The notes under the pieces were generated by a model, which saw nothing but the letters and a program-made list of their open reading frames with translations, was not told the DNA's origin and searched no databases. From IMG/VR virus record IMGVR_UViG_3300018080_000100: a DNA stretch of 34,656 nt. One strand, given 5' to 3'. Origin of the DNA: a virus. Positions 2,092-29,774 of this stretch are shown here, one piece after another (within the stretch, counting starts at the first letter, position 1; every line of letters begins with the position of its first letter). The position numbers and the translations under genes are program-made.

Positions 2092-2896
2092 CCAGTACGT
2101 CGAAGAGTGTTGGGTGGTTACGGATACGCGGTGCGGGCGCTTCGGGCGGTTCGCACCTGTAAGTTACACCGATCGGCTGTTGAGAAAAACCGCGCCGGGA
2201 CGCTGTTGAGCATTTTCCGCTCTCGTTGGCGTTGATGGCCAACCCCGTAGTGAACTTGCCCATCTTGTAGCCATGCTGATGGCACAGGGCGCCAAGCATC
2301 ACGTCGCCGCCGTTGTGTTCGAAGTCCTTCGGCGGCCAGTCATGCCGTTTCAGGATATCCGTCCGGATGCACCACCACCCGCCTGTGATGAACGAAATAC
2401 GGGCATGCTGCGGCACCGGCTTGCCATTGAACCACGGCTGATCCCTGATGTACTGCGCCTGATGCCCCCGAAGGTTCATCAGGTACGGCGCGCCCACCAT
2501 GGCATGATTCTGCATCTTGTCGTCAAGTATGCCGAACCACAGTTGCGGGTCTCGATTGCTGTCCAATAGCCACGAGTCATCGTCGAACCAGATGGTGTAC
2601 TTCGTATCGATGCCTGGGTGCCCGTCGTTCAACGTCGCATCTGGTGTACCGTGGAACATGCGCCGCATCAGCGGATACTTGTAGTACGGCTGCTCTCCAC
2701 GATACACGTCGGTGATCGGGACATATATGTGCCGGCGCAGCACAGTCTCAGTATCCCTGCAGACGTTGTTCAACCCGACACGCATGTCGAAGTAGTCGGC
2801 CCACCCCGCACGACCGAGCGACTCTAAGAGCCGCTCGGCCAAGTCGGGATGTTTGCCGTAGAACAGAGCACAAATTGTGAACTGCTTGTTTGCCAT
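2072..2896 (-). CDS. hypothetical protein with hhhhDDD motif (YTIWFDDDSWL); possible GT-A fold glycosyltransferase
   Basis: 274 aa track ORF. Its ATG overlaps the upstream stop as TAATG at 2894-2898. A DxD-like motif preceded by a hydrophobic beta-strand is typical of nucleotide-sugar glycosyltransferases. The assignment is tentative. Confidence 0.6.
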   Translation of the reverse strand: MANKQFTICALFYGKHPDLAERLLESLGRAGWADYFDMRVGLNNVCRDTETVLRRHIYVPITDVYRGEQPYYKYPLMRRMFHGTPDATLNDGHPGIDTKYTIWFDDDSWLLDSNRDPQLWFGILDDKMQNHAMVGAPYLMNLRGHQAQYIRDQPWFNGKPVPQHARISFITGGWWCIRTDILKRHDWPPKDFEHNGGDVMLGALCHQHGYKMGKFTTGLAINANESGKCSTASRRGFSQQPIGVTYRCEPPEAPAPRIRNHPTLFDVLDGKHVP

Positions 2897-3870
2897 TAGC
2901 GATTGACGCCTACACGGCCCTTGCGTTTCTTGGCTGCCTCTCGCTTCTTTTTGGCCGCAGCGCGCTTCTCACGTGCCTTGCGGTTGCGCTCCTCGTTGAG
3001 CGCGACGCTGTCGTCCTCAGGCTCCTCGCCCGATTCCGTGGCAGCGTCCTCCAGCTCGGCAGCGTTCTGCTCAGCCATTTCGGCCTGCGCAGCCATACGC
3101 GCCTCGATGTCTGCCTCGGTGCCCGCCAGGACCTGAGCCATGGCCGCAGCACGCGTCTGCATGCCTACGACCTGCTCCTTGGTCTCGCGCACGGCGGTGA
3201 GCAGCTTGTCGTTCAGCTTATCGGCCGGGATCTCGTGGATCGTCTTGTGCAGGTCGAAGTTGTCACCAGTCCACGCGTCGTCGTAGTTGGTATTGAACTT
3301 CATGGCCTGCGACTGCACATGCGTCAGACAGCCGCGTGCGGACTGAGGAACCTTGACCTTCGGCTTGTTGGTGCCGCGCTTGGTGCGCTCGCACAGATCA
3401 CGTACCTTGGCCCACAGCTCCTCTGCCGTCCACGCCTGTTCGAGGCACGCGGCAGCAAGCTGCATACGGGTATCGAGATCGCCCACGCCGGCAAGGTAAA
3501 CCAGATGCGACCAGCTCAGCATGTTGCCAGCTTCGCCCTGCATCTTGATGTATTCGGTGAACGCCTTCTTCGTGCCGAACGCCTTGCAGACGTTCATGGA
3601 GTTACGAAGCTGGGCGTCCGTCTTGAAGCCCAAGCCCACAGCGAGGCGCGTCAGCACCTTGTTGCCATAGAGCTCTTTCTTACTGGCGGCCTTCCTGTGG
3701 ACGGCAGCCACTTTCTGTCCCAAATCCCAGTACCACAAACTGCTGTCCTTCGTGCGCTGCTGGATGTAGGTATGCAGCTCCTTGAAGGCGGCCTTCTCGG
3801 CGTCGGTGTAGGTGGACTGGGCCTGCAGAGGAGTGTAGTCCTCTATCTTCGCAGGAAGCGTTGTACTCAT
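2896..3870 (-). CDS. hypothetical protein (324 aa), acidic/basic Lys-rich C-terminal tail
   Basis: Track ORF. An AGGAG SD sits 6 nt upstream of the ATG at 3870. The stop overlaps the next start as TAATG. Confidence 0.7.
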   Translation of the reverse strand: MSTTLPAKIEDYTPLQAQSTYTDAEKAAFKELHTYIQQRTKDSSLWYWDLGQKVAAVHRKAASKKELYGNKVLTRLAVGLGFKTDAQLRNSMNVCKAFGTKKAFTEYIKMQGEAGNMLSWSHLVYLAGVGDLDTRMQLAAACLEQAWTAEELWAKVRDLCERTKRGTNKPKVKVPQSARGCLTHVQSQAMKFNTNYDDAWTGDNFDLHKTIHEIPADKLNDKLLTAVRETKEQVVGMQTRAAAMAQVLAGTEADIEARMAAQAEMAEQNAAELEDAATESGEEPEDDSVALNEERNRKAREKRAAAKKKREAAKKRKGRVGVNR

Positions 3871-5485: not shown

Positions 5486-5633
5486 TCTCGCTCCTTCTTG
5501 GTGTTACCGGCACAACCTCCACGGCCTTGTCGACGCTGGCGATATGATCCGCCCGCTCTTTGTCGACATAGACCGTCAGAGGATAGCCGTTGTCCTTCCT
5601 TGTGACCACGTACCAGGTCTCTTCTTTAGCCAT
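5349..5633 (-). CDS. small hypothetical protein (MAKEETWYVVTRKDNGYPLTVYVDKERADHIASVDKAVEVV...)
   Basis: The ATG at 5633 overlaps the stop of the RecA-like gene as TAATG. The first ~45 aa look protein-like. The Arg-rich tail overlaps 5003..5485 and may reflect a wrong frame or a frameshift. Confidence 0.4.
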   Translation of the reverse strand: MAKEETWYVVTRKDNGYPLTVYVDKERADHIASVDKAVEVVPVTPRRSENARLARPDARRGRVQAGRDSDDRARGSAPHRNQGRAPRRGVVYDL

Positions 5634-7045
5634 TACAGCTCTTCTGGATTCTCGACGGACGAGGTAGGCCACGCTGTGGGTGCCTCAGTCACTGGCTGTG
5701 GATACTGCTCGGGCGTCGGGCCGAGCGCCTCTTGCTCTTCTTGGAGCGACTTCAACTGGCTCACCGTCACGGCGATCGCATCAGCCTGGGCCTCGATATG
5801 CTCGTTGCCCGCCTGCTGCTTCATGTAGTCCACGCCAGGCTGGAAGTACGGCTGCTGCGTGATCTCGCACAGTTCGTACAGATCGGTCAGCACGTCAGGA
5901 CGCAACTCAAGCTGCATACCAAGATCGTGCGCAGGCATGGCATCGCTGGACGGCACGCCAAGGCGCTTAGACCAGTAGAGCTTGCCGGCGCTTCCGCCAG
6001 ACTTCTCGTGGATGTCGCAGACCTCACGCGCCCGCGGTACGAACGCCTTAGCCTTAGCCTGTGTCATGCCCTGACCGGACGCCAGGAACAGGATGCCAGC
6101 CTCCCACCATTCGAAGCGGCTGTGGAGCCTGTGGATGCCTGGGGCATCCTCCTGATACCACGTCTTGAACCGTACGTTGATGCGGATGTTGTCCGCGCCG
6201 TACGAGTTCTTGATCGTCTTGAGCATGACCGTGCCGGCCTTGTAGGTGGCGAAGTCCTTGATCTGGCCGATCTTGTCCATCTGGAGAATGGCAGCGCACT
6301 GGAACTTCAGTGCCCACCCGCCAGGGATGTTGTAGTCGATCTGGCCGGTGATCTTGTCTTCGGCGATCTTCATGTGGTTCACGCCCACGAAGGTTATCGG
6401 CCATCCGAGAAGCTTCTGTGGATAGGCGCGCATGAAGTCGGCAATGAGCTTGGCTTCCACCGGGAAGTGCATCCCAGCGTGGCCCTCCTTGTCGATATTG
6501 GCCAGCGTCTTCTCACTAGCCTTACCGGTCAACGAGTCGACGATCATGCAGAACGGATGCTTACGGCCGATATGCGCGTACTTCTCGCAATCCTTCTGCC
6601 ACTGGGCAGTGCCCATCAACGTCTTGCGCTGCCAGTCCTCGAGCGTAGCACAGTCCTCTACTTTGACGGCACCGGTGTCCCAGTTCAGCACAGCGTTGCG
6701 CATCTCAGGTGTGGGCTTCGTCTCAGCCTCGTTGAGTTGACCCAGACCACCGCACAAGCGATGCCAACGTAGCATCTCTATGGCGAGCGTGGACTTGTAG
6801 CAGCCCTGCGGGCCAACTACTTGATAGACGCAGCTCATGGGCAAGCCCGTGTTCTGCAGCAAATACCGGATGATGAACGCCGGCACGGGCAGCACTGTAA
6901 GCGTATCGTTGTGACCGACCAGCACGCCCTTCTTCAACAGCTTCTCCTGGACGGTTTCCATCGAACGCGCGAACACCTGGTCCACGGTGATCTCTTCGCC
7001 AGTGAGCTTGTTCTTGACTTCCGTCTTAGACTTACGTTTCGCCAT
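5633..7045 (-). CDS. RecA-superfamily P-loop ATPase, possible phage recombinase (UvsX/Sak4/RecA-like core plus ~150 aa C-terminal extension)
   Basis: It carries a deviant Walker A (VVGPQGCYKST) followed by a hhhhD Walker B (FCMIVDSL) at RecA-like spacing. An AGGA SD lies upstream of the ATG at 7045. It sits next to the replication genes. Confidence 0.6.
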   Translation of the reverse strand: MAKRKSKTEVKNKLTGEEITVDQVFARSMETVQEKLLKKGVLVGHNDTLTVLPVPAFIIRYLLQNTGLPMSCVYQVVGPQGCYKSTLAIEMLRWHRLCGGLGQLNEAETKPTPEMRNAVLNWDTGAVKVEDCATLEDWQRKTLMGTAQWQKDCEKYAHIGRKHPFCMIVDSLTGKASEKTLANIDKEGHAGMHFPVEAKLIADFMRAYPQKLLGWPITFVGVNHMKIAEDKITGQIDYNIPGGWALKFQCAAILQMDKIGQIKDFATYKAGTVMLKTIKNSYGADNIRINVRFKTWYQEDAPGIHRLHSRFEWWEAGILFLASGQGMTQAKAKAFVPRAREVCDIHEKSGGSAGKLYWSKRLGVPSSDAMPAHDLGMQLELRPDVLTDLYELCEITQQPYFQPGVDYMKQQAGNEHIEAQADAIAVTVSQLKSLQEEQEALGPTPEQYPQPVTEAPTAWPTSSVENPEEL

Positions 7046-8608: not shown

Positions 8609-11600
8609 TCAAGCCCCTACCTTCTCGGTTTTTGGTGGCTTCCCGTACTTCCGATCGATGCCGATGGCATCGCATTCTTCCCACGATAACGTCACACCCC
8701 AGCGGGTGGCGACATCCTGATCGATGCCGAATCTGTAGACCGGGGAGTCGCTGAAAGGGACTCCGTCCAGGTCGCACGCGCGGAACGATACTGCGTCGAC
8801 CATGCACTCTGGCATGATTTCGTTGTATACCGTGTCCAAGCTGCGTATTGGAACCTCCAGGATGACAGCGTCATGGATCTGGAGTACGATCTTGTAACCA
8901 AGTTCCGCTTTACGCGGATGGTTGTATAGATAGAACAGCGCGGTACTGACCGCGTCGGCTACCATACTCTGGAACGGGAAGTTCAGGAACTGGCGCTCCA
9001 GCTCTCCCATCGCTCCACGATCGCTGGTGGTGATACACCGGCGATAACGTCCGAAACAGTTACGAATCCAACCAGGCTTCGCCACCCGGGCCCTCAACTG
9101 TTCTTGCAGTATTGGGATTCCCGGGTAGGTGGCGAAGATCGTATTGATAATCTGCTGAGCTTCAGCCTCGACGATGGGTGCGCCTTCTTCTTGGCACTGG
9201 CGCGCACAGGCTTCTGCTGTGCGGCCGTATCCCACGCCGAAGATGATGTTCTTAGCAGCCACACGCTTGCCCTTCTGTCCAATGCCTGCAAGGCCCGCTT
9301 TCGTGGGTTCACAGTCTAGTCGGAACGATTGAACAGCAATATTCGAGTGGATATCGTACTGGTTGGGGTCGTCATCCTCCAAATTGGCCCTCAGGCAGTG
9401 ATCAAGCATGGTTTTGTCGCGAGACATTACTGCCATACCCAACAACTCGGCGCCTTTATAATCCGCCTCTAGCAGAACGGTGGTTTCGCCGTAGTTGGGG
9501 TCAGTATTGCTCACGATAAACGAACGGATAGGCCATGTGTAACGCTCGCCCAGAATCTTGCGGTAGTCGTCTTCTCTTCGCTTGCTGATGTTCTGGAGTG
9601 GCGGCCTAGCCGATGATGCACGACCTGTTTCCTTCACTTGCTGGAAGGAACTACGCACACGCGAGTCATGGCAGGCATACTTTGCGATGCCTCCCCCGTA
9701 GATCCTCCGGCCAAGTTCGTCCAGTTGCAATTGGTTCTTAACCATTTTTGGCGGACGAAAGACCGATTTAAGGACCTGGTCGATCAAGCGCACATTCCGT
9801 AGTTGGCGTGCAAAAGCATGCTGTGCTCCGAGGATTCCACAGACTTCTTTATCGGTAGATGGTGCCCATTGGTCCTGCTCTCCGCGAGACTCCACCCATG
9901 CCCACGGCTTACCCTTGCCCGTCGTCTTGATGGGCTTGAGGTTCAGCGTGAGCGCGCCTTTCGGACGTACGCTGACGCGCTCGCCCGTTGTCTTGTCGCG
10001 CTTGGTGGAATACTTCTCGCCGAACAGGAACTCGACGCACTGTTGGCTGCTGCGCGGGTTGAAGCCCGGCCAGTTGATGTCCTGGCGCAGCTTCTCCAAG
10101 TGCTCGACGCTGATCGACTGGAAGAGGTCCGTTAGCGCATCCACGCGCTCCAGATCTATCTTCACCCCTTCCATACCCATCTCGCAGAAAGCCGGGAAGG
10201 CCATCATGGAGATGTGGAACGGGACCCAGCAGTCATTGCCGAAGCGGTCGCCATCGAGCAGCTTGCAGTGCACGTCCATGAGCTGACGCGTGTAGGCAGC
10301 GTCCTTGCCGCCATACGGGATGAGGATCTCGTCGGGACACTCGCCGTATCCTTCCAGCTCCTCATCCTTCATCTTGTGTTCGTGTAGGTAGTTACGCTTC
10401 CACTCCTGTAGCTTGACGTCCCAGCGATCTGCACCGCAGAGCCGTGTTGCCATGACCTCCAGCTTGAAATCACCGGTCTCGTTGTACGCGTGGTGCGCCA
10501 ACGCCACGTCGAAGCCGCCGGCGTAGTCACCGCCACGGATGTCCTCGACGTTCTCGGGCACACGGAATCGGTGCGCGATCTTCAAACCGTTGTATTCCAA
10601 CCACGGAAGGTCGGCGGAGAAGAAGCTTCCGCCGATCTGCACATCGTCACGATCGAGCAGCCTGTTAAGCTGGTTGATCGCTGACTGGATGCCGGGACGG
10701 AACGCGTGCGCGCCGCCCTGGTTGCGCAGAACGATGACGGCGGCGTATTCGCCGTGGTGGCTGATCTGGATGGTACGCAGGTACGAGCCGGGCTCGCCTG
10801 GGTGCTGTCCGTGCCACTCGCCGTCGACTCCGATCTTCTTGATCCCAGGCTGTGCCAGAATGTAGTCGACCAGCTCAGCCAGGTCACGCTCTTTGTAGAA
10901 CGTCTGGATCGTAATCGTTTCGTCGGAACTTGCCGTGAACTCTTCGCCGCGAATCAACTTCGTGAAGTTGCGGCATGTCGCCTCAAACTGCGGATACAGC
11001 TCAGTCGTCCTGAGCACTGCCGCCGGATGGACTACCGCCATTACCTTAGGCTTATGGATTATGGGCGCCTGGCCCGCCTCGTCCTGCAGCGGCACATCGA
11101 TCTCGATGTAGCGGCCGATCATGTTACTGACGGTATGGCCTGGGCCACATACGGCCTTGGTAGCTTCTGCTCCAAGGCACAGGATGTAGTCCGGCCGTAC
11201 CAGACGCAGCTCCTGATGCAGCAGCGGCAGGCAGTCTTTGATCCATGCCTGCGGCAGCGCCGAGCTGTTAGAACTGAACTGCTGCCAGCGCACGAGATTG
11301 GTGACATACCAGTCGTCCATCTCAGTGGTAGACAAGCCATGCCGCTCGAACGTCTCGCGCAGCTGGCATCCTGAGGGCCCAACGAAGTTGCGCCCTGCTG
11401 TTGTCTCCTCCATACCAGGCATCTTGCCAACGATCATCACGCGCGGCACATTGTGCTTCTGCACGTATTCGTCGTCGAGATACTTGGGACCATCAGCGGG
11501 ACCGCCCCACAGGTGGCCAGGCACGATGCGTACAGTCTCCTGCCGGCCCTTCAAATTGACGGGCAGGTCGAAGTCGTTGCTGTACAGGCACCGCAGGTAA

Positions 11601-11830
11601 AGGCACTGCAACATGAACCCGACGGATACGACACGTTTGTCCTTGCCGGTGCCCTCTGTCTGCACCGGATTGTCGTCACCGAGGGCACGTGCGTGCTCCA
11701 CGAAGTTCACGCCCGCAGGCGGCATACCCGGTGCTATCAACGGATACATCGCATAGCGCTGCGCGAACGAGTTGTTTGGGTCGCCCCGGAAGATCGCTTC
11801 CAGGTCGTCCACAGAAAGTTCAGGAATCAT
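8609..11830 (-). CDS. DNA polymerase, family A (Pol I-like) with N-terminal family-4 UDG-like domain and 3'-5' exonuclease domain (1073 aa)
   Basis: UDG family 4 motifs are present: GKMPGMEETTAGRNFVGPSGCQL and VVHPAAVL. An exonuclease motif IGVDGEW follows. Pol A motif B (KRVAAKNIIFGVGYG) and motif C (LQIHDAVILEV) are present. The ATG at 11830 overlaps the primase stop as ATGA. Confidence 0.9.
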   Translation of the reverse strand: MIPELSVDDLEAIFRGDPNNSFAQRYAMYPLIAPGMPPAGVNFVEHARALGDDNPVQTEGTGKDKRVVSVGFMLQCLYLRCLYSNDFDLPVNLKGRQETVRIVPGHLWGGPADGPKYLDDEYVQKHNVPRVMIVGKMPGMEETTAGRNFVGPSGCQLRETFERHGLSTTEMDDWYVTNLVRWQQFSSNSSALPQAWIKDCLPLLHQELRLVRPDYILCLGAEATKAVCGPGHTVSNMIGRYIEIDVPLQDEAGQAPIIHKPKVMAVVHPAAVLRTTELYPQFEATCRNFTKLIRGEEFTASSDETITIQTFYKERDLAELVDYILAQPGIKKIGVDGEWHGQHPGEPGSYLRTIQISHHGEYAAVIVLRNQGGAHAFRPGIQSAINQLNRLLDRDDVQIGGSFFSADLPWLEYNGLKIAHRFRVPENVEDIRGGDYAGGFDVALAHHAYNETGDFKLEVMATRLCGADRWDVKLQEWKRNYLHEHKMKDEELEGYGECPDEILIPYGGKDAAYTRQLMDVHCKLLDGDRFGNDCWVPFHISMMAFPAFCEMGMEGVKIDLERVDALTDLFQSISVEHLEKLRQDINWPGFNPRSSQQCVEFLFGEKYSTKRDKTTGERVSVRPKGALTLNLKPIKTTGKGKPWAWVESRGEQDQWAPSTDKEVCGILGAQHAFARQLRNVRLIDQVLKSVFRPPKMVKNQLQLDELGRRIYGGGIAKYACHDSRVRSSFQQVKETGRASSARPPLQNISKRREDDYRKILGERYTWPIRSFIVSNTDPNYGETTVLLEADYKGAELLGMAVMSRDKTMLDHCLRANLEDDDPNQYDIHSNIAVQSFRLDCEPTKAGLAGIGQKGKRVAAKNIIFGVGYGRTAEACARQCQEEGAPIVEAEAQQIINTIFATYPGIPILQEQLRARVAKPGWIRNCFGRYRRCITTSDRGAMGELERQFLNFPFQSMVADAVSTALFYLYNHPRKAELGYKIVLQIHDAVILEVPIRSLDTVYNEIMPECMVDAVSFRACDLDGVPFSDSPVYRFGIDQDVATRWGVTLSWEECDAIGIDRKYGKPPKTEKVGA

Positions 11831-14619: not shown

Positions 14620-15321
14620 TTAGGGGGCAAACATTAGGATGCCTGTAGCCTCGTCTTTCAGTACCTTCGGTATCATGGCACCCCACGTCCGGCTGTAGCC
14701 TATCGGGTCCATCAAGAACTGCGTCAAAGCAGCAGCCCTATGCGCACGCTCTGCCTCGTGCAACTGCTCCGAATGTGCAATGCAGTATCGGTACAGCGCG
14801 GGCAGCTCGTACATTTTGTTCATGAGAACAAAATTCCAAAGCTGCTGGTCCGTGTAGTCAGGGAAGGCGTTAGCTGCCTCGCCCACACAGCATTCGAACT
14901 CCAGCTGGTATGACTGCAGTGCTTGCAGCATGCTGTTGTCGGCACGCTTGTTGTAATCCAGGTAGCGCTTCAACGCCTTCGGACCCTTGAACGTCGTCGG
15001 GTTTGGTGCTACCGAAAGCGTCTCGTCCGCCGGCACGCTGTATCTGTACTGGACGTGGATGAACCGCTCGAAATTGCTGATGTCTGCCCGTATCAGCGTC
15101 CGTGCGAGGTCCATCCAGACAGGCGTAACATGCCGCGGGCGCGACATTGCCACTGACTGGCCGTCGACTTGCATCTCGCGCACTTGGCGCTCGCGCATAT
15201 TGGCCAAAGCCAGCCGATGCGCAGCAATGTACGTCGGGTCTTGTACTGTCGGCAGCTCTTCGGCCTCCTCAGGTGGAGGAGCCTGCATCTGCGCAGCACG
15301 TGGTGGATTAGAATCCGGCAC
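14620..15321 (-). CDS. hypothetical protein (about 233 aa)
   Basis: Track ORF. A GTG start at 15321 has a GAGGA SD 6 nt upstream. It overlaps the SF2 helicase stop by 14 nt. Confidence 0.55.
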   Translation of the reverse strand: MPDSNPPRAAQMQAPPPEEAEELPTVQDPTYIAAHRLALANMRERQVREMQVDGQSVAMSRPRHVTPVWMDLARTLIRADISNFERFIHVQYRYSVPADETLSVAPNPTTFKGPKALKRYLDYNKRADNSMLQALQSYQLEFECCVGEAANAFPDYTDQQLWNFVLMNKMYELPALYRYCIAHSEQLHEAERAHRAAALTQFLMDPIGYSRTWGAMIPKVLKDEATGILMFAP

Positions 15322-16849
15322 GTCTCGTCCTCATTCCTGGTTGCCAGACCTCGCCGTTAGCGAGCATCTGTGTCCATCCGCGTTTGTGGTATGCCCGCCG
15401 CCGATTCATGGTGCGGTTCTGGAACTTACTGTCCCAGATGTCGTTCAGATCGATCAGGATGCCAGCTTCCTTACCCGTCTTCGGGTCAACGCGGCATACA
15501 CGTCCCGGGATCTGTACATTGAAGGTATCGCTGTCACCGCCGTCGCCGCGGATCAGCACGTTCAACGAGTCGAAGCTGACGCCCGTGGACCACACGCCGG
15601 TGGCTATCACGCACATCAGTTCGCGGCGCTCGAATTGCTGTCCGAGCATCACACGCCGCTCTGGCGTCATCAGCTCTTCCGGCGTCAGCAATCCCTGGCG
15701 CACATAGCGCGCGTGCTTGACGCTATCCACAGCGCCTTCAGAGTAGCACAGTGACGCCTCGGGCATTAGCTGCCGCAGATTCAGCGCATGGTCGACTGTG
15801 TCCACCAGGATCAACACTTGCTGCTGATCCTGTAAGAACGAGCGCGCCGCCTCGACGATCACCTGGTTGCGCCACTGGTTGCGCCAGATGCCATTGCGCT
15901 TCTGTGCAACCAGCTGCTGCAGGTTCTCGATCGGGTTGATTCCGCCACAGTCGACATCGAGCCACTGGACGTAGACGTGCGACACCAGCCCGCACTCCTC
16001 TGCTTGCTGCTGCGTCATCTGGAAGATACGTGGACCGAAGATGCCCTCCATACGATGGTGGGCGTTGTCCAGACGCATATCCGGCGTGGCAGTGAAGCAG
16101 TAGTTACGCGAGCGCCAGTATTGGCCGAGACGCTCAGCGAGTCTGTCGGTCATCAGCTCGTGAGCCTCATCGGCCAACAAGATGTCGGCGTCGAAGTCCG
16201 AGTGGTGCAGGCTGTCCGCCGTATACACGGTGACGCGCCGATTCTTGTCCTTCTTACCGCCGCCGACCATACCTACGCTGGGAACCCAACGCGTCAGCAG
16301 ATTCTTGATACGCGTGACCACGTCCTTACGCTTCGTGACGATATCGATCTTCGCGTGTGGATACATGCACGCTACCATTGCCATCACATGCGTCTTACCG
16401 AAGGCCGGGGGCGCGTCGATGAGGCCGCAGTCGTGCATGTCGATCTGCGCGAGGCATTGATCCTGCATCGGTCGTAGCTCAAAGCGCTCGAAGATGCGGT
16501 CCCAGTTGGCCGTGTAGACCTTTTCGGGCTTAGGTTCGTCGTTGTCGACGAAGACCACCTGATAGCCCATTCCAACAAGCAGATCCCGTATTCTGGGATA
16601 GAAACCCTTCTGACAGACGAAACGGCCTTTCGTGTCGTACTGGAAGAGCCTACGCTGCTCGTGCGTGATGTTGTGGCGCCCGCCCGAGAATCGGTCATAG
16701 GAGCCAGCACCACCGTACTGAAACTTGTTGTGCGTGTAGAATAGCGGCTTTTCGAGGGTGCCGTAGTCGCCGGCTGGCAGCGGCCGAGTGCCGTCTGCGG
16801 ATACCTCTATGAAGGGGCCACCCTTCTTCACGATAGCCTGTTTACCCAT
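15308..16849 (-). CDS. superfamily 2 DEAH-box helicase (UvsW/RecG-like class of phage helicases)
   Basis: Motif I is APPAFGKTHV, motif II is LLADEAHEL and motif VI is QIPGRVCR. It is the first gene of the minus-strand replication block, with an intergenic region upstream. Confidence 0.8.
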   Translation of the reverse strand: MGKQAIVKKGGPFIEVSADGTRPLPAGDYGTLEKPLFYTHNKFQYGGAGSYDRFSGGRHNITHEQRRLFQYDTKGRFVCQKGFYPRIRDLLVGMGYQVVFVDNDEPKPEKVYTANWDRIFERFELRPMQDQCLAQIDMHDCGLIDAPPAFGKTHVMAMVACMYPHAKIDIVTKRKDVVTRIKNLLTRWVPSVGMVGGGKKDKNRRVTVYTADSLHHSDFDADILLADEAHELMTDRLAERLGQYWRSRNYCFTATPDMRLDNAHHRMEGIFGPRIFQMTQQQAEECGLVSHVYVQWLDVDCGGINPIENLQQLVAQKRNGIWRNQWRNQVIVEAARSFLQDQQQVLILVDTVDHALNLRQLMPEASLCYSEGAVDSVKHARYVRQGLLTPEELMTPERRVMLGQQFERRELMCVIATGVWSTGVSFDSLNVLIRGDGGDSDTFNVQIPGRVCRVDPKTGKEAGILIDLNDIWDSKFQNRTMNRRRAYHKRGWTQMLANGEVWQPGMRTRRAGF

Positions 16850-16869
16850 TTTTACCCGTAGTGCTGGTA

Positions 16870-16898
16870 TTGACAGCGGACGTACGGGGAGATAGGAT
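16870..16898 (+). promoter_or_regulatory. sigma70-like promoter: TTGACA - 17 nt - TAGGAT
   Basis: A perfect -35 hexamer at 16870-16875 and a 4/6 -10 hexamer at 16893-16898 sit on the plus strand inside an otherwise minus-strand block. It reads toward the intrinsic terminator at 16952-16987. Confidence 0.35.
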
Positions 16899-16904
16899 CA
16901 GACA

Positions 16905-16987
16905 ATTGAACCGCCTGACCGACCATATCCCCGTGTGGTCGCGAATCACTTGGAGCCCCGTTCCCGCGGGGCTCCTTTTTTGTTTGT
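16905..16987 (+). ncRNA. candidate small non-coding RNA (~80 nt), promoter-to-terminator unit
   Basis: It is bounded by the promoter above and by a canonical Rho-independent terminator. It contains no ATG. It did not fold as a tRNA cloverleaf when inspected by hand. Confidence 0.3.
16952..16987 (+). terminator. Rho-independent terminator: GGAGCCCCG-ttcccg-CGGGGCTCC followed by TTTTTTTGTTTG
   Basis: A 9 bp perfect GC-rich stem is followed by a 7-T run on the plus strand only. The minus strand has no T-run, so it is unidirectional. Confidence 0.7.
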
Positions 16988-17177
16988 ATGCCGGCGAGCG
17001 CCGGTCTTTCGACAACAAGAGCCGCATGACGCACACGCGTCACACGGCCGCAGCGCTGTCCAGTTTAGGCATCCTAGCTCTCCACAAGATGGCTGTCAAC
17101 GGCGGTCTTGGCGGTATGCACTGGTTCCTACATTTTGTACCGCGCACGGCTGGAATACACCATATATGCGGGTCAAA

Positions 17178-18212
17178 TCAGATCATGTTTGTTGCGATCT
17201 GGTGCAGCTCGTACGCTGCCTTCTCCGTCTGGTGATGGAAGAAGTCCGTCGGACGGAATAGCGGGCACTGCTGCTCAGGTGTCGCAGCGGATTCACGATA
17301 CAGCTCGCTCAGCCACGTGTGGCGGAGGAACGCGATAAACCGCTGCGAGCCCCGCAAATCAGCCATGACTGGATCGCCCTCGGGCGCGTTCGGATCGCCT
17401 AGGCCAAGCTTGCGGCCCCATGTCCTCCAGCAGAAATCCCACGGGGCCATGCCCACCAGGTCGCTGCCCTCGACAGGATGCGGCGCGCCAAGCTCATAGC
17501 GATAGCGCACCTTCTGCTCGGCTGCTCTGTTCTTCCAGCAGTTCAGCACGACCTTGCAGCGTTTGTGGTGCCGCCACGGTTCGCGTGTGCCGTACACGCC
17601 GGCCTGCGTTCGTGGGTTCAAGCCCAGCCACGCTTCCAGCTTGCCGAGACGATCTGGTGCGCACTGGTCTATGTACCAGCGCGGGTCCAGTATGTACGAC
17701 AGCAGTCCTGCCACCGACAGTTTGTTGAGTGACTGGATGAACGATAGCGGACGCCACGCAGGATGGCCACGCAGCAGCTGCAAGACATCCACCTCAACTT
17801 CTTCGCCGTGGAGCACACTCTTCGACAGTGCGACTGCCAGGGCATAGGAGCGATAGTCGGACTCGACGACTTCGTGGAAACCACCCAAGCTGGGCGCTCG
17901 TGTGAAATCCCGCATAGCCAACAACATAGCTTCGGGGTTACGGCGATGCTTTTCAATACGCCCGACCAATGGCGTGCATACCTGCACGCTTTGCAGCTTG
18001 TCTTTCTGTTTGAGGTCGTACAACTGCGTGATCAATCTGGCGTTAGCGCACGTGCCTACTAACTGCACGCTATCCGCGCGCGTGAAGGCAGCGCTCTCGA
18101 GAAACGCTTCTGGAGACTCGCCAGAGCATCGCGTGGCGTAGTCTCCGTCGGCATACCAGATCTTTCCGCAGTGCGTATGCAGTTTCATTGTCAATGTGTC
18201 GATCGCTCTCAT
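17178..18212 (-). CDS. hypothetical protein (344 aa)
   Basis: The ATG at 18212 overlaps the sbcC-like stop as ATGA, indicating translational coupling. Composition is protein-like. No recognisable motif. Confidence 0.65.
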   Translation of the reverse strand: MRAIDTLTMKLHTHCGKIWYADGDYATRCSGESPEAFLESAAFTRADSVQLVGTCANARLITQLYDLKQKDKLQSVQVCTPLVGRIEKHRRNPEAMLLAMRDFTRAPSLGGFHEVVESDYRSYALAVALSKSVLHGEEVEVDVLQLLRGHPAWRPLSFIQSLNKLSVAGLLSYILDPRWYIDQCAPDRLGKLEAWLGLNPRTQAGVYGTREPWRHHKRCKVVLNCWKNRAAEQKVRYRYELGAPHPVEGSDLVGMAPWDFCWRTWGRKLGLGDPNAPEGDPVMADLRGSQRFIAFLRHTWLSELYRESAATPEQQCPLFRPTDFFHHQTEKAAYELHQIATNMI

Positions 18213-22707: not shown

Positions 22708-22996
22708 CGATATCCGCAAAGAGTCGCTTCTTAGCGCATACTGCCAGCTTATGGGCCTGGGACACGCTCACGCAACGCACTGATTCGCGCTGCCCTGCTG
22801 CCTGTCCACGGCCCGAGGCTGGCCAGTAGTCCGCCAGGTGTTTATCGCCGTACTTGAAACGCCAATGCTGGTCGTTGTCGCTCAGCGTGACAGTGATCTG
22901 CTCGAAGGCAAGCTCGCTCTGGAGCATTTCCAGTTCAGCTGTTGCTGACTGGAGCCGCTGTTTGCGGATCTGCTTCTTCTTGCTCATCTGCTGCAC
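22670..22996 (-). CDS. hypothetical protein (108 aa), doubtful
   Basis: Track ORF convergent with csrA, overlapping its 3' end by 38 nt and the HldE-like stop by ~60 nt. No SD was checked. Its composition is Gln/Lys-rich. Confidence 0.3.
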   Translation of the reverse strand: MQQMSKKKQIRKQRLQSATAELEMLQSELAFEQITVTLSDNDQHWRFKYGDKHLADYWPASGRGQAAGQRESVRCVSVSQAHKLAVCAKKRLFADIANALQVVEVASF

Positions 22997-24428
22997 AGGC
23001 TTTCGCGCGGATGTCGGTCGCGTGCGTATCGAACTCGAGCGTCGTCGTCATGATACGGCCGCCGACCTCCTCCATCGTCAGCGCTTCTGGAATCCGATCG
23101 GTCTTGCCGGCGTGCTCGGGGCCCTTGAACAGGACCGTCGGTACCAGATTGTGGATAAGTGACTTGGGTGTGTCTTCGTCGAACTTGATGATCGCATCGA
23201 CGCACGGTAGCGCTGCCAAACTCGCGGCACGCGTGGCGTAGTCGTTGATCGGCTTGCTCTTGATGCGGGCGGCCGACTCGTCCGAATTCAACATGACGAG
23301 TAGGAAATCGCACTCTTTGCGCGCCTGCTCCAGCATGGAGACATGCCCAGGATGCATCAGATCGAAAACACCGTTGGCTACGCCGAAGTCGCCGCCGCTG
23401 ACCATCATGGATGCGCGCAGCAGCATAGCAAAAGGCAGCTCTATCTTCTTGAGCTGATTGCCAGATACAATGGTCAGCCGCCTGTGTATCTGGTGCAGTG
23501 ACACCGCGGATGCGCCAGGGCGCTCTACCTGTATCGCTGCGGCCGTTGCTGCAAAGTGCAACATGGGCATCAAAGACATATCGGCAGCGACGCCATAGGT
23601 GAACGCTGCAGCAACAGTGTCGCCAGCACCGCACGAGTCGACCGCTAGTGCTGGCACAGCTGGCATCTCGGACGGCGTCTCGTTCGGGCGCACTATGAGC
23701 ATACCGGCAGCGCCACGCGTCACGATGCAATGCACAGCGTGCAGTTCCTTGCAGACCGCCATAGCCGCCGAGCGTACGTCAGCAATCCGCGGGTCGGCGA
23801 CTGCCGCAAGCACCTCATGCTCATTGGGCGTAATGATATGCGCACCACGATAGTGAAGCATATGCTTCGGCGTCGGGTCTACGACCACCGGTACTTTGTG
23901 TGCGCGCGCATACTCGAAGATGACCTGGAGCGTACGCTCCGTGCAAATACCTTTGTCGTAGTCGGACACAAGGATCGCAAGTGGTTTCGCGTCGTCGACA
24001 CACTTCATGAACATGTCGACCACCTTGTCCTCGACATTGGCCTTCGGGCGTGCGTCTATGTCGAAGCGAGCTACCAGACTGTCAGCTGCGTACACGCGGT
24101 GTTTGCAGGGCGTTTGGTAGTTCTTATCCGTGGCTACATACCGCGTCAGCAGCTCCGGTAGTTCCATGTTCAAGAAGTTCCGGCCGGCGGTGTCATCGCC
24201 TACGACGCTTACGAACGCCGTGGGCATCGCCATATGTACGAGATTGGCCATCGCGTTGGCGGCACCGCCCAAGCCAAGGAAGGGCGTACCAGGTGGCACG
24301 TCTATGACGGGAACTGCAGCGGTTTGGTCAAGCTGCTTCACCGTTCCCATGTAGTAGTGGTCCATAAGCACAGGTCCGACTACGACCACGCGGTCGCCTT
24401 CATCCTGTGCTGGGTGATTCGTCGTCAA
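22935..24428 (-). CDS. bifunctional PfkB-family sugar kinase / cytidylyltransferase-like nucleotidyltransferase (HldE/RfaE-like, D-beta-D-heptose 7-phosphate kinase / heptose 1-phosphate adenylyltransferase architecture)
   Basis: The N-terminal ribokinase-like domain has a GAGD anion-hole motif (DSCGAGDTVAAAF). The C-terminal domain carries the (T/H)xGH nucleotidyltransferase motif (GVFDLMHPGHVSMLEQARK). The start is TTG at 24428 with a GGAGAG SD 6 nt upstream. Confidence 0.8.
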   Translation of the reverse strand: MTTNHPAQDEGDRVVVVGPVLMDHYYMGTVKQLDQTAAVPVIDVPPGTPFLGLGGAANAMANLVHMAMPTAFVSVVGDDTAGRNFLNMELPELLTRYVATDKNYQTPCKHRVYAADSLVARFDIDARPKANVEDKVVDMFMKCVDDAKPLAILVSDYDKGICTERTLQVIFEYARAHKVPVVVDPTPKHMLHYRGAHIITPNEHEVLAAVADPRIADVRSAAMAVCKELHAVHCIVTRGAAGMLIVRPNETPSEMPAVPALAVDSCGAGDTVAAAFTYGVAADMSLMPMLHFAATAAAIQVERPGASAVSLHQIHRRLTIVSGNQLKKIELPFAMLLRASMMVSGGDFGVANGVFDLMHPGHVSMLEQARKECDFLLVMLNSDESAARIKSKPINDYATRAASLAALPCVDAIIKFDEDTPKSLIHNLVPTVLFKGPEHAGKTDRIPEALTMEEVGGRIMTTTLEFDTHATDIRAKACAADEQEEADPQTAAPVSNS

Positions 24429-27436: not shown

Positions 27437-27733
27437 TCACCAGTGATACTGGCGAAGGAAATCGCAGATCGGGCCGTCGGCGTCGATCCGCACGAAATCT
27501 ATCTCGTGGCTGTGCGCCACAGACAGTATGTGTCCCACCGAGGGACTGAAGCCAAAGTCGTTAAGGGTCTCTAGGATGCCGTCGCCGAAATCGTCCGGTA
27601 CACCAACCCAGAAACCCTCAGGGTATTCCTCTACACCTAGATCTGCACACTGGCCTAGCGCATTCGCGTCTTCGGCAGTGATATGACAGGTGTTGATCGT
27701 CCAGAGTCGACGAATATCTAGCGGTTCGGTCAT
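27437..27733 (-). CDS. hypothetical acidic protein (98 aa)
   Basis: The ATG at 27733 overlaps the stop of the pilin-like gene as ATGA. Confidence 0.5.
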   Translation of the reverse strand: MTEPLDIRRLWTINTCHITAEDANALGQCADLGVEEYPEGFWVGVPDDFGDGILETLNDFGFSPSVGHILSVAHSHEIDFVRIDADGPICDFLRQYHW

Positions 27734-28155
27734 TGCATTAGCTCCCGTACCGCATCTTCGTCGCGCGAATCGACGTCGATCTCAGTCACTGTGCCGTTCG
27801 CAATGTCGTTCGACATCACGGACAAGAGGCGCCCCCTGGGAGCTACATTGCCTTCATACTGTATAATTCCCTGAATTTGCGCTGCCTTGAGGCGTACTTT
27901 GCGCACCTGCGCTACAAGCGAAAGACAATCAGCGTCAGCCGCCTTCACATAGAAATGGTGCCGACTATCGATGACACCTTCCCACTGAGCCTTGGCTGCG
28001 ACATACTGTAAGCGCGTTACCGGACCGAACACTTCCTCGGTACGCGTAGTGTGTCCGACAGAGAACTTGCCGATCGCGCCGACGAGCAGCGAAGCCAATA
28101 TCCCCACGATCGCGATGACTACTAGTAGCTCTACAACGGTAAACGCTCGACGCAT
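27730..28155 (-). CDS. prepilin-type N-terminal cleavage/methylation domain protein (type IV pilin / pseudopilin-like), 141 aa
   Basis: The N-terminus MRRAFTVVELLVVIAIVGILASLLVGA matches the class III signal peptide / N-methylation motif ([G/A]F-T-hh-E-hhhhhhh...). An AAGGAGG SD lies 7 nt upstream. Confidence 0.75.
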   Translation of the reverse strand: MRRAFTVVELLVVIAIVGILASLLVGAIGKFSVGHTTRTEEVFGPVTRLQYVAAKAQWEGVIDSRHHFYVKAADADCLSLVAQVRKVRLKAAQIQGIIQYEGNVAPRGRLLSVMSNDIANGTVTEIDVDSRDEDAVRELMQ

Positions 28156-28983: not shown

Positions 28984-29362
28984 CGTGTATCCATCCTTCC
29001 TGTACGGACCAGATGATCCGTTCAATGTTCAAATCGTCGGCCAGCAGGACCGGCGACGGACTGTGTTCTTTGGGACGAAGGCCGCGCGCACGACAACGTG
29101 CGATCGCCTTCGGTTCTAGGTTCTGAAACTTGTATAGGTAGTCCATCGCGTCTGCGTGGTGTCGAAACACGTGCCAGCCGGATAGATACCATGTCTTAGA
29201 TGTGCCGTCGCGTACGCGCTTCTTCGCGGCGACCATCCACTTGTTCACAGGCATGACCTTTGAACCGGCCAGGCCATGGAACAACGTCTTGATATTGCCA
29301 TCGACGATGTCGACTATCTTGTAGACGACCTCGCCTGGTGCGGCGCTAACCCGATTGGTCAT
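28964..29362 (-). CDS. hypothetical protein (132 aa)
   Basis: Track ORF. It overlaps the ndk stop by 17 nt and the next gene start by 20 nt. Confidence 0.5.
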   Translation of the reverse strand: MTNRVSAAPGEVVYKIVDIVDGNIKTLFHGLAGSKVMPVNKWMVAAKKRVRDGTSKTWYLSGWHVFRHHADAMDYLYKFQNLEPKAIARCRARGLRPKEHSPSPVLLADDLNIERIIWSVQEGWIHDELQTE

Positions 29363-29774
29363 AGAACCCGGGGAAGAAGATACGTATCTCGCGCTCCGCC
29401 TCTGGCGCGCTGTCGCTGCCGTGGATGACGTTCCGGCGATAGTTCTCGCCGTAGTCTCCGCGGATGGTGCCGGGTAGCTTCTGCGGCTTGGGCGCTAGCG
29501 GCGCACCTATCAGCTCGCGCACGACCGCAATGGCATTCTCATGCCGGTGGTCAACGACCATCACCCAGCACAGTCCGCTGACCATGAAGTCGATCAGTCC
29601 GTCGATCCACGTCTCATGGGCGAACTTCTGGTAGAGATCATTGGCCTGCCGTCGCGTCATGAGGATCAGCTCGCCCTTAATGAAGAAGCAGCCGCGGTCG
29701 CGTAGCTTCGTCATAAGGATCCCGTCGATATTCCTCTCGACCGCGTCCGGCTTGATGATTACGAGGGTTTCCAT
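29346..29774 (-). CDS. ndk: nucleoside diphosphate kinase
   Basis: It has IIKPDAV at the N-terminus, GTIRGDY, and the active-site NVIHGSDS motif. Its length of 142 aa is typical. A CAGGAGAACAAAAT SD/spacer precedes the start. Confidence 0.9.
   Translation of the reverse strand: METLVIIKPDAVERNIDGILMTKLRDRGCFFIKGELILMTRRQANDLYQKFAHETWIDGLIDFMVSGLCWVMVVDHRHENAIAVVRELIGAPLAPKPQKLPGTIRGDYGENYRRNVIHGSDSAPEAEREIRIFFPGFYDQSG

Follow-up and report, generated by a model that had tools for sequence, protein, structure and literature searches.

A conserved candidate countertranscribed RNA in the replication operon leader of an uncultivated jumbo-phage lineage

Background

For small Gram-positive plasmids, it is textbook knowledge that replication genes are controlled by antisense RNAs through refolding of the leader. 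In the staphylococcal RepA_N plasmids, the RNAI of pSK41 is an antisense RNA of ~83 nucleotides (nt) with an unstructured 5' tail, two stem-loops and a short spacer (PMC5703833). It is counter-transcribed and complementary to the rep leader upstream of the region of translation initiation (TIR), at a distance of ~100 nt from it, and its binding induces a stem-loop that sequesters the ribosome binding site (RBS) without terminating transcription (PMC5703833). The 87 nt RNAI of pT181 binds the repC leader and sequesters a pre-emptor sequence. The 5' arm of stem-loop IV is thereby freed to pair with the 3' arm that contains the RBS, and transcription terminates (PMC5703833). Here we describe a small RNA (sRNA) gene, very probably genuine, in IMG/VR virus record IMGVR_UViG_3300018080_000100, a stretch of 34,656 nt that is referred to below as the window. 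It lies upstream of a helicase gene and in the opposite orientation, and its product is a candidate countertranscribed RNA (ctRNA) that may switch the structure of the helicase mRNA leader.

Two phage RNAs of comparable kind are P22 sar, which is ~69 nt long, and lambda OOP, which is ~77 nt long. Both are cis-antisense RNAs, sar acting on ant and OOP on cII, and each is encoded with a promoter and terminator of its own within an operon transcribed in the opposite direction (PMC5415839). The plasmid pairs R1 CopA/CopT and IncB/IncI-alpha RNAI are antisense to the leader of a replication gene and act at a distance from its RBS (PMC5415839; PMC3834814). Remodelling of a structure that sequesters the Shine-Dalgarno (SD) sequence is found elsewhere as well. 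Binding of the sRNA DsrA to rpoS, as outlined in PMC2831331, remodels an intramolecular structure of this type. SR4 binds elsewhere on the bsrG mRNA and lengthens the sequestration of the SD sequence from 4 to 8 bp (PMC3834814).

Results and discussion

A predicted sRNA gene in a minus-strand operon

The gap between the gene for a superfamily 2 (SF2) helicase and an upstream open reading frame (ORF) of 344 amino acids (aa) spans 328 nt, from 16850 to 17177. A first-pass annotation, made from the letters of the window, had proposed that a short non-coding RNA is transcribed here from a TTGACA -35 box, a 17-nt spacer and a TAGGAT -10 box, on the strand opposite to all surrounding genes. These promoter elements were confirmed on the plus strand (Table 1), and the minus strand carries every long ORF of the 34.6-kb window. 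The predicted promoter, P(+), has the -35 box, the spacer of 17 ± 1 nt and the TAnnnT element of sigma-70-type promoters, with a 10/12 match overall. It starts 20 nt from the helicase ATG and is directed away from the helicase. A scan of the whole window returns only two 10/12 promoter matches, and both are inside the gap. Likewise, the pattern TTGAC-N18-TANNNT occurs twice on the two strands of the 34.6 kb, both times in the gap, with 0.42 occurrences expected. The two top-ranked terminator-like hairpins of the window are also both located there.

The predicted sRNA consists of a 5' tail, a first stem-loop (stem-loop 1), the linker GCGAAUCAC and an intrinsic terminator. When the transcript is taken as 16905-16986, it folds as two hairpins with an energy of -34.3 kcal/mol (z = -5.2). 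The terminator stem, GGAGCCCCGT/tccc/GCGGGGCTCC at 16952-16975, has 10 pairs, 8 of them G-C, closed by a UCCC loop. It is followed immediately on the transcribed strand by TTTTTTGTTTG at 16976-16986, which reads U6GUUUG in the RNA, so that both the GC-rich hairpin and the U-run of an intrinsic terminator are present. This terminator is unidirectional because the minus strand has no U-run after the stem. The unidirectional GC hairpin with its T-run had been recognized in the first-pass annotation, which gave a stem of 9 bp and a run of seven T residues; there are six.

A weaker second hairpin had been reported beyond the terminator, with a stem of 6 bp and a loop of 2 nt. It is present, but as a stem of 5 bp with a loop of 4 nt. 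It is not conserved, because the relatives described below lack that part of the gap, and could serve as a back-up stop for sRNA read-through. Two plus-strand ORFs, at 16861-17235 (124 aa) and 16935-17261 (108 aa), were dismissed as they cross the terminator into sequence that is missing from the relatives. ARAGORN finds no tRNA or tmRNA in the window.

Conservation and compensatory change

Approximately 85 loci encoding relatives of the helicase were retrieved, and the DNA upstream of each helicase was inspected. Representatives of the sRNA unit are found at the same position and in the same orientation in ~20 distinct loci (designated here by L numbers), whose helicases range from 76% to ~47% identity. 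The promoters of these relatives consist of TTGACA or TTGACC, a spacer of 17-18 nt and TAnnnT; they start 15-29 nt from the helicase ATG and point away from it. The sRNA bodies that follow are 64-98 nt long and include a stem-loop with a C-rich apical loop. Each homologue ends in a GC hairpin of locus-specific sequence, followed by a T-run. In most relatives the unit occupies the whole intergenic gap, which is only 97-172 nt long there. No conserved ORF is found in the sRNA homologues, and the indels in their loops are not multiples of three. Where the sRNA is missing, as in L012 and L082-L085, the entire module is missing with it.

In an alignment of 21 sequences, the T-T-G-A-C of the -35 box and the T, A and final T of the -10 box are invariant, compared to a mean column identity of 54%. 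These invariant positions are the ones most needed by sigma-70. Beyond the promoter, the MAFFT alignment of all 21 copies is too diverged for column-wise covariation, and RNAalifold alone places the terminator stems out of register. Structure conservation was therefore assessed with two subgroups, a covariance model and folding of each locus, instead of a single alignment.

For the 12 most alignable copies, the structure folded from the window (stem-loop 1 plus terminator) leaves 83% of cells paired, compared to 30-52% when the pairing partners are slid. Pairs with changes on both sides make up 9 of the 18 in this structure. The number of doubly changed cells is 23, against 10.4 in shuffled alignments, and none of 500 shuffles reaches 23. 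Both hairpins contribute: 4 of the 8 pairs in stem-loop 1 are changed on both sides, with 85.7% of its cells paired, and 5 of the 10 terminator pairs show double changes. Many pairs in these two hairpins are U-G on the plus strand and would be A-C mismatches on the minus strand.

A covariance search for homologues had been suggested as a check in the first-pass annotation. The model built from the 12 homologues matches the window at 16903-16981 on the plus strand with 85.6 bits and nowhere else in it, and it also picks up homologues at the syntenic site on which it was not trained (L016/L058, L024 and L018). A further weak match, at 1137-1211 on the minus strand of L029 (14.4 bits, E 0.25), lies off the site expected from a partial helicase match and is probably noise. 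Scanning IMG/VR with the exact terminator sequence gives no match. The same scan with the sRNA core CCCCGTNNNGTCGCGAAT returns 33 loci, all of which are chance matches by the covariance model (best 18.6 bits), and it reveals no copy of the sRNA away from this helicase. Two distant helicases, L070 and L071 (36-37% identical), have a similar divergent promoter-like CTTGTCA-17-TACACT and a GC hairpin upstream; these are at most possible kin of the window's sRNA.

Taken together, the recurrence in ~20 loci, the invariant sigma-70 positions and the compensatory changes in both hairpins speak for the short non-coding plus-strand unit that had been proposed. With high confidence, this is a genuine, conserved and single-copy non-coding transcription unit, that is, a real sRNA gene, the transcription of which is predicted from its conserved signals.

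Three co-evolving arms in the helicase leader

A second promoter, P(-), is located in the gap on the minus strand. Its hexamers and spacing are identical to those of P(+), and the two promoters face each other with start sites ~160 bp apart. The 215-nt leader of a P(-) transcript would traverse the antisense of the entire sRNA gene before entering the helicase operon, and this makes the antisense relation of the sRNA to the helicase mRNA concrete. The predicted sRNA falls within this leader (17064 to 16850), 55-135 nt upstream of the AUG, as expected of a ctRNA. Equivalents of P(-) directly past the sRNA terminator are found in L011/L053/L054, L018 and L005. In the other relatives the nearest minus-strand promoter-like sites are ~650-680 nt upstream of the helicase, and the antisense of the sRNA is intercistronic there. 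Neither P(-) nor two of the hairpins in Table 1 (stem-loop 1 and that at 17049..17020) figure in the first-pass annotation.

Three segments of the leader, arms 1 to 3, are arranged such that arm 2 has two alternative partners: arm 1, or the helicase ribosome site in arm 3. Folding of the leader yields a long hairpin at 16934..16884, in which arm 1 pairs with arm 2 and the apex lies ~3 nt from the predicted transcription start site (TSS) of the sRNA. This hairpin is predicted in all 19 loci folded. In 16 of the 19 its stability exceeds that of the plus-strand reading of the same DNA (sign test p ~0.004), because of its G-U pairs. When the part of the leader complementary to the sRNA is blocked, arm 2 pairs with the helicase SD region in nearly every locus, leaving U/GGUCAA in the loop. 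In the corresponding sRNA-bound model of the window, CCCGUA (16888..16883) pairs with UACGGG, and UGUCAA, the antisense of the -35 box, is in the loop. The predicted pairings of pre-emptor with 5' arm and of 5' arm with RBS arm are thus mutually exclusive, and the target of the sRNA includes the pre-emptor.

Table 1. Predicted features of the helicase leader, the sRNA gene and their immediate surroundings in the window
Feature	Coordinates	Strand	Details
SF2 helicase, 513 aa	15308..16849	minus	ATG at 16849
Arm 3, helicase TIR	16836..16869	minus	SD UACGGG 16860..16855, AUG 16849..16847, first codons
sRNA promoter P(+)	16870..16898	+	-35 TTGACA 16870-16875, 17-nt spacer, -10 TAGGAT 16893-16898
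Arm 2, C-rich, anti-SD/anti-TIR	16884..16906	minus	AUUGUCUGAUCCUAUCUCCCCGU; antisense of P(+) -10 and spacer
Predicted sRNA, ~75-82 nt	16905..16983	+	5' end deduced from -10 position
Arm 1, G-rich 'pre-emptor'	16910..16934	minus	ACGGGGAUAUGGUCGGUCAGGCGGU; exact antisense of sRNA ~+6 to +30
Stem-loop 1	16921..16940	+	GACCAUAU / CCCC loop / GUGUGGUC, 8 pairs
Intrinsic terminator	16952..16986	+	stem 16952-16961 with 16966-16975, then U-run
Small hairpin CCGGC/GAGC/GCCGG	16992..17004		5 bp, 4-nt loop
13-pair hairpin	17020..17049	minus	5' end of P(-) transcript, then CUUGUUGUCG
Convergent promoter P(-)	17099..17071	minus	TTGACA-17-TAGGAT, TSS ~17064
344-aa ORF of unknown function	17178-18212	minus	stop at 17178

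The segments of this leader have changed together during divergence of the family. In a permutation test, duplex energies of cognate segments, taken from the same locus, were compared to those of non-cognate combinations across loci. The spacer antisense pairs with its cognate SD region at -10.7 kcal/mol, compared to -8.2 kcal/mol for non-cognate partners (p = 1e-4). Arm 1 and the spacer antisense likewise prefer each other, at -16.1 versus -13.0 kcal/mol (p = 5e-5). The control pairing of arm 1 with the SD region, two G-rich segments, gives p = 0.66. These results are unchanged with 16 non-redundant representatives. Co-evolution of the promoter spacer with the helicase RBS would follow if the same DNA serves as sRNA promoter and as anti-SD arm.

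At least eight distinct pairs of arm 2 and SD partners occur across the loci. The window group has CCCGUA with UACGGG, and the others include CUCCGU with ACGGAG (L007 and L010), CCCUG with CAGGG (L015), CCCAGC with GCUGGG (L016), UCCUGCA with UGCAGGA (L017), CCCUUG with CAAGGG (L018), ACUGCU with AGCAGU (L086) and CCUGUGU with ACAUAGG (L019).

The two alternative structures were also followed by counting pairs on a minus-oriented alignment of 11 loci. The core helix of the SD-sequestering structure (state 2) is 79.5% paired, and 6 of its 12 pairs are changed on both sides. The whole state 2 structure is 69% paired, compared to 35-44% when slid. In the outer stem of the competing hairpin (state 1), GC, GU and AU alternate at each position.

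Blocking the part of the leader that is complementary to the sRNA lowers the predicted accessibility of the ribosome site. At -14..+3, the unpaired probability drops from 0.68 to 0.31 for the window, from 0.74 to 0.31 for L081 and from 0.38 to 0.10 for L013. The family mean for SD-AUG accessibility falls from 0.46 to 0.37 (Wilcoxon p = 0.016).

Two further correlations involve the sRNA itself. Its 5' tail co-varies with helicase codons ~4-7 (cognate -12.2 versus -10.2, p = 0.0016), and there is weak covariation of the region of stem-loop 1 with the SD sequence (p = 0.034). Such complementarity of tail and loop is an expected by-product of the layout, because the G-rich arm 1 mimics the translation-initiation region, and it also leaves room for direct pairing of the sRNA with the helicase mRNA. 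A simple anti-SD action of the sRNA body on the helicase was dropped as the main explanation, given inconsistent duplex z-scores and the weakness of the later test (p = 0.034).

A model for leader switching

We lean towards a specific mechanism in which the ~80 nt sRNA is a cis-encoded antisense RNA, or countertranscript, that switches the helicase leader. The sRNA would be made from the sigma-70-type promoter, which points away from the start codon of the helicase, and would be ended by its intrinsic terminator. The operon mRNA from P(-) would run antisense through the sRNA gene and so would hold arms 1, 2 and 3 in its leader. While arm 1 and arm 2 are paired with each other, the ribosome site would be left open. 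The sRNA, a perfect complement of arm 1, would bind this segment and take away the pre-emptor. Arm 2, once freed, would fold onto the ribosome site, and translation of the helicase would fall. The downstream genes for DnaB-like helicase, primase and polymerase would probably be expressed less as well, through overlapping stops and starts and possible polarity. Of the functions listed in the first-pass annotation, antisense regulation of the flanking helicase is the one that best fits the comparative data.

The induced hairpin appears in two forms. In the window group, the SD arm UACGGG is followed by an A-run, UAAAAAUG, rather than by the U-run of an attenuator. The effect in the window is therefore expected to be translational, as in pSK41. 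In 7 of the 19 relatives (L010, L015, L016, L017, L018, L024 and L086), U4-U6 directly follows the SD arm, within the final 12 nt ahead of the AUG. The induced hairpin of these relatives could, on this model, also terminate transcription, as in pT181.

Several points weigh against this model or limit its reach. GUCUG/CAGGC, which forms the outer end of state 2 in the window, lacks conservation (helix 1: 45%). State 1, when scored in fixed columns, is only weakly above its controls (61% versus 36-50%), a poor score that arises because the length of the inner stem varies. The permutation test takes related loci as independent, and its significance could be inflated. The mean thermodynamic effect that is predicted is modest. 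For about half of the loci, arm 2 is on the ribosome site in the minimum-energy fold even without a constraint, and the sRNA alters nothing in that calculation; an effect in those loci would need to be kinetic and co-transcriptional. What is observed directly is the set of sequence features, with their conservation and covariation, and the fact that the three segments co-evolve; transcription of the sRNA, pairing of the RNAs, and the direction and size of the effect are predictions from these. Control of replication by this route would also presuppose a helicase that is rate-limiting.

Comparison with described systems

The closest resemblance is to pSK41 RNAI. The size of the window's sRNA, its two-hairpin layout, its position and its predicted outcome are all similar, and in both cases an induced hairpin is to sequester the ribosome site; that of the window bears the SD sequence and is followed by an A-run. 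The window's sRNA differs in having no sequence or Rfam relation to RNAI and in being known from sequence alone. Its target is an SF2 helicase at the head of a phage replication operon rather than a plasmid Rep initiator, and its anti-SD arm doubles as the spacer and -10 box of the sRNA promoter. The three-element logic is shared with pT181 and also with pIP501 RNAIII/repR, and the 7 relatives with U4-U6 have an attenuator-like hairpin of the pT181 kind. In contrast, the A-run of the window group makes termination unlikely, and the induced hairpin, with its large loop or its inner stem, differs from compact terminators.

P22 sar and lambda OOP are alike in that each is a small phage cis-antisense RNA with its own promoter and terminator. 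However, sar covers the ant ribosome site, whereas the 5' end of the window's sRNA (~16905) is 55 nt from the AUG and the SD sequence lies outside it. Lambda OOP overlaps the 3' end of cII and acts by RNase III decay. The window's sRNA overlaps no RBS or coding region, and its predicted action is leader refolding. The plasmid systems that act at a distance use other devices: R1 relies on a leader peptide and translational coupling, and IncB/IncI-alpha RNAI blocks an activator pseudoknot. Neither a leader ORF nor a pseudoknot was found here. DsrA binds an anti-SD arm and activates translation, whereas the sRNA described here would bind an anti-anti-SD arm and should repress it.

Searches of Rfam with cmscan over 16000-18000 and 16800-17200, at E <= 10 and E <= 1, return no ctRNA family. 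Matches to ncS54, BjrC1505, RAGATH-25 and istR are below threshold and driven by the terminator, and membership in these families was rejected. The alignment to ncS54 (RF02871), a Burkholderia sRNA, is full length at 16899-16982 on the plus strand, with 25.5 bits (E ~1e-3) against a gathering score of 43. It is carried almost wholly by the terminator hairpin with its U-run, and the 36-nt body is left unaligned as an insertion. By analogy, the element appears to work like a ctRNA, yet it belongs to no described RNA family and may be regarded as a sequence-unrelated example, in an unusual setting, of a known regulatory kind.

Alternative explanations

In another reading, the sRNA is real and antisense to the helicase leader but has a different main mode of action. 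A long perfect duplex between sRNA and leader might be cut by RNase III in the style of lambda OOP-cII, the facing promoters might interfere with each other, or both, and the leader hairpin would then be an RNase III site or an mRNA stabiliser. A duplex of ~80 bp exists by construction, and in the window the convergent promoters, with their identical hexamers, are close together. The leader hairpin is long (~22 bp) and imperfect, and phage RNase III sites of T7 and lambda resemble such hairpins. The OOP/cII pair provides a precedent (PMC5415839). We nevertheless judge this account unlikely, since it leaves unexplained both the co-evolution of arm 2 with the SD sequence and the placement of the sRNA start at the hairpin apex. 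The lack of a nearby convergent promoter in most relatives also speaks against it. RNase III cleavage or interference and the leader switch are not mutually exclusive, and the former may contribute or dominate. Less probable is that the RNA acts chiefly in trans, with its C-rich loop as an anti-Shine-Dalgarno mimic and its 5' tail pairing with the RBS regions of host, phage or helicase mRNAs. C-rich apical loops recur across the family, the tail and stem-loop 1 co-vary with helicase sequences as noted above, and the U6 terminator resembles those of Hfq-dependent sRNAs. However, the complementarity of loop and tail is expected from the three-arm design, and the z-scores from an initial duplex scan against the helicase TIR were inconsistent. 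The sRNA is found solely beside the helicase, with chance matches only in the IMG/VR core scan. A role as a host-targeting riboregulator, which the first-pass annotation had also entertained, is not needed by the evidence.

It is very improbable that there is no functional sRNA, that the gap instead holds a structured element acting in cis in the helicase mRNA, or else a DNA element such as an origin or a protein-binding palindrome, and that the plus-strand signals are incidental or serve only to stop stray antisense transcription. In favour of this reading, conservation and co-evolution are also seen for the minus-strand leader structures, and a replication module such as the one around the gap could be expected to contain an origin. 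Yet a structure on the opposite strand would not keep an exact TTGAC-N18-TAnnnT with invariant A-11 and T-7, nor would it place a T-run directly 3' of a plus-strand GC hairpin in every locus. The U-G pairs of stem-loop 1 and the terminator, being A-C mismatches on the minus strand, also argue for a plus-strand RNA.

Implications of the countertranscript model

If the sRNA does switch the helicase leader, a broader proposal can be made, which we put forward tentatively and as a possibility only. A jumbo-phage lineage may control its replication operon by a plasmid-style countertranscript that senses gene dosage, with a single DNA stretch acting as promoter and as anti-SD arm. The dosage-sensing role, like the effects on downstream genes, is inferred. 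Phages of this kind may then set their genome copy number, or the timing of replication, in the manner of plasmids. Such control would be a hint of a lifestyle that is plasmid-like or a carrier state, or of early replication genes that are switched off at a set time. We found no description of leader-refolding antisense control of a large-phage replication operon in the literature searched, and we know of none.

The locus is a compact, sequence-defined example, and its ~20 natural variants provide compensatory 'mutants' in all three arms. Promoter spacers are usually deemed nearly free sequence, and here the spacer is under dual constraint. For annotation of metagenomic jumbo phages, the unit offers a recognisable non-coding gene that marks the start of the replication operon.

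Genomic context

The gap lies within a replication module. On one side are genes for an SbcD-like phosphoesterase, an SbcC-like ATPase and the 344-aa ORF. On the other side the order is SF2 helicase, a 233-aa ORF, a DnaB-like helicase, a primase and a family-A polymerase with a uracil-DNA glycosylase domain (PolA-UDG). The stops and starts of the five genes from helicase through polymerase overlap or abut, and the helicase is therefore taken as the head of an operon. A replication origin in the gap was considered and rejected: the sequence has neither repeat arrays or iterons nor an anomaly in AT-richness or skew, and clusters resembling DnaA boxes were not seen.

The window represents an uncultivated jumbo-phage lineage. 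An identical helicase protein is present on a 226.5-kb metagenomic contig, and relatives of the helicase occur on contigs of up to ~228 kb, many within IMG/VR. Searches of deposited phages by DNA similarity, in near and distant modes, give no match to the window. In protein mode the best match to a cultured phage, Verrucomicrobia phage P8625, has only 24% identity, and the lineage therefore has no cultured relative. A scan of GTDB genomes for the helicase family yields only a 23% match in a metagenome-assembled genome of Bacillales, with no clue to a host or prophage, and a single-protein scan of IMG/VR gives no match.

The strain-level surroundings of the gap can also be compared. Two independent assemblies (JGI 3300028895 and Logan SRR6963491; L002 and L003) match the window with 100% identity across the gap, and the ends of their contigs are no more than 2 nt apart, at window positions ~17117-17119 and ~20 nt upstream of the P(-) -35 box. 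A strain-variable junction near 17117-17119 is suggested by the fact that both contigs end there. The gene upstream of the helicase varies in length, with 344 aa in the window and 150-200 aa in relatives.

Additional features are associated with P(-). The 13-pair hairpin at the 5' end of its transcript, together with CUUGUUGUCG, is the top-ranked terminator-like site of the window. It could stabilise the 5' end, act as a leaky terminator or attenuator, or mark where a second small RNA of ~55 nt ends (17020-17064, minus strand). L011 likewise has a small hairpin directly after its P(-). The motif ACATTTTGT occurs twice in the window, at 17130-17138 and 14811-14819, both on the plus strand, with 0.06 copies expected; the copy in the gap is ~30 nt beyond the P(-) -35 box. 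The related motif CATTTTGT(A/G) recurs beyond P(-)-type promoters upstream of the helicase in L005, L011, L012, L082 and L084, which include some relatives without the sRNA. These motifs may be the site of a regulator.

Other observations concern proteins of the lineage. Some helicase relatives (P0021, P0060 and P0064) are 650-820 aa long and bear Hint/intein Pfam domains, and the downstream DnaB-like gene of L083 (3726-4524) has homing-endonuclease/Hint domains. Judging from these domains, inteins have apparently entered replication genes in this phage lineage. Auxiliary genes lie at 22935-24428, 29346-29774, 27730-28155, 5633-7045 and 2896-3870, all on the minus strand. Their products are an HldE-like bifunctional PfkB kinase/cytidylyltransferase, a nucleoside diphosphate kinase, a protein with a type IV pilin-like N-terminal methylation motif, a protein with a weak RecA-like match and a DUF1016 nuclease-like protein. 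The 1073-aa ORF at 8609-11830 on the minus strand brings together uracil-DNA-glycosylase-superfamily, 3'-5' exonuclease and family-A polymerase domains.

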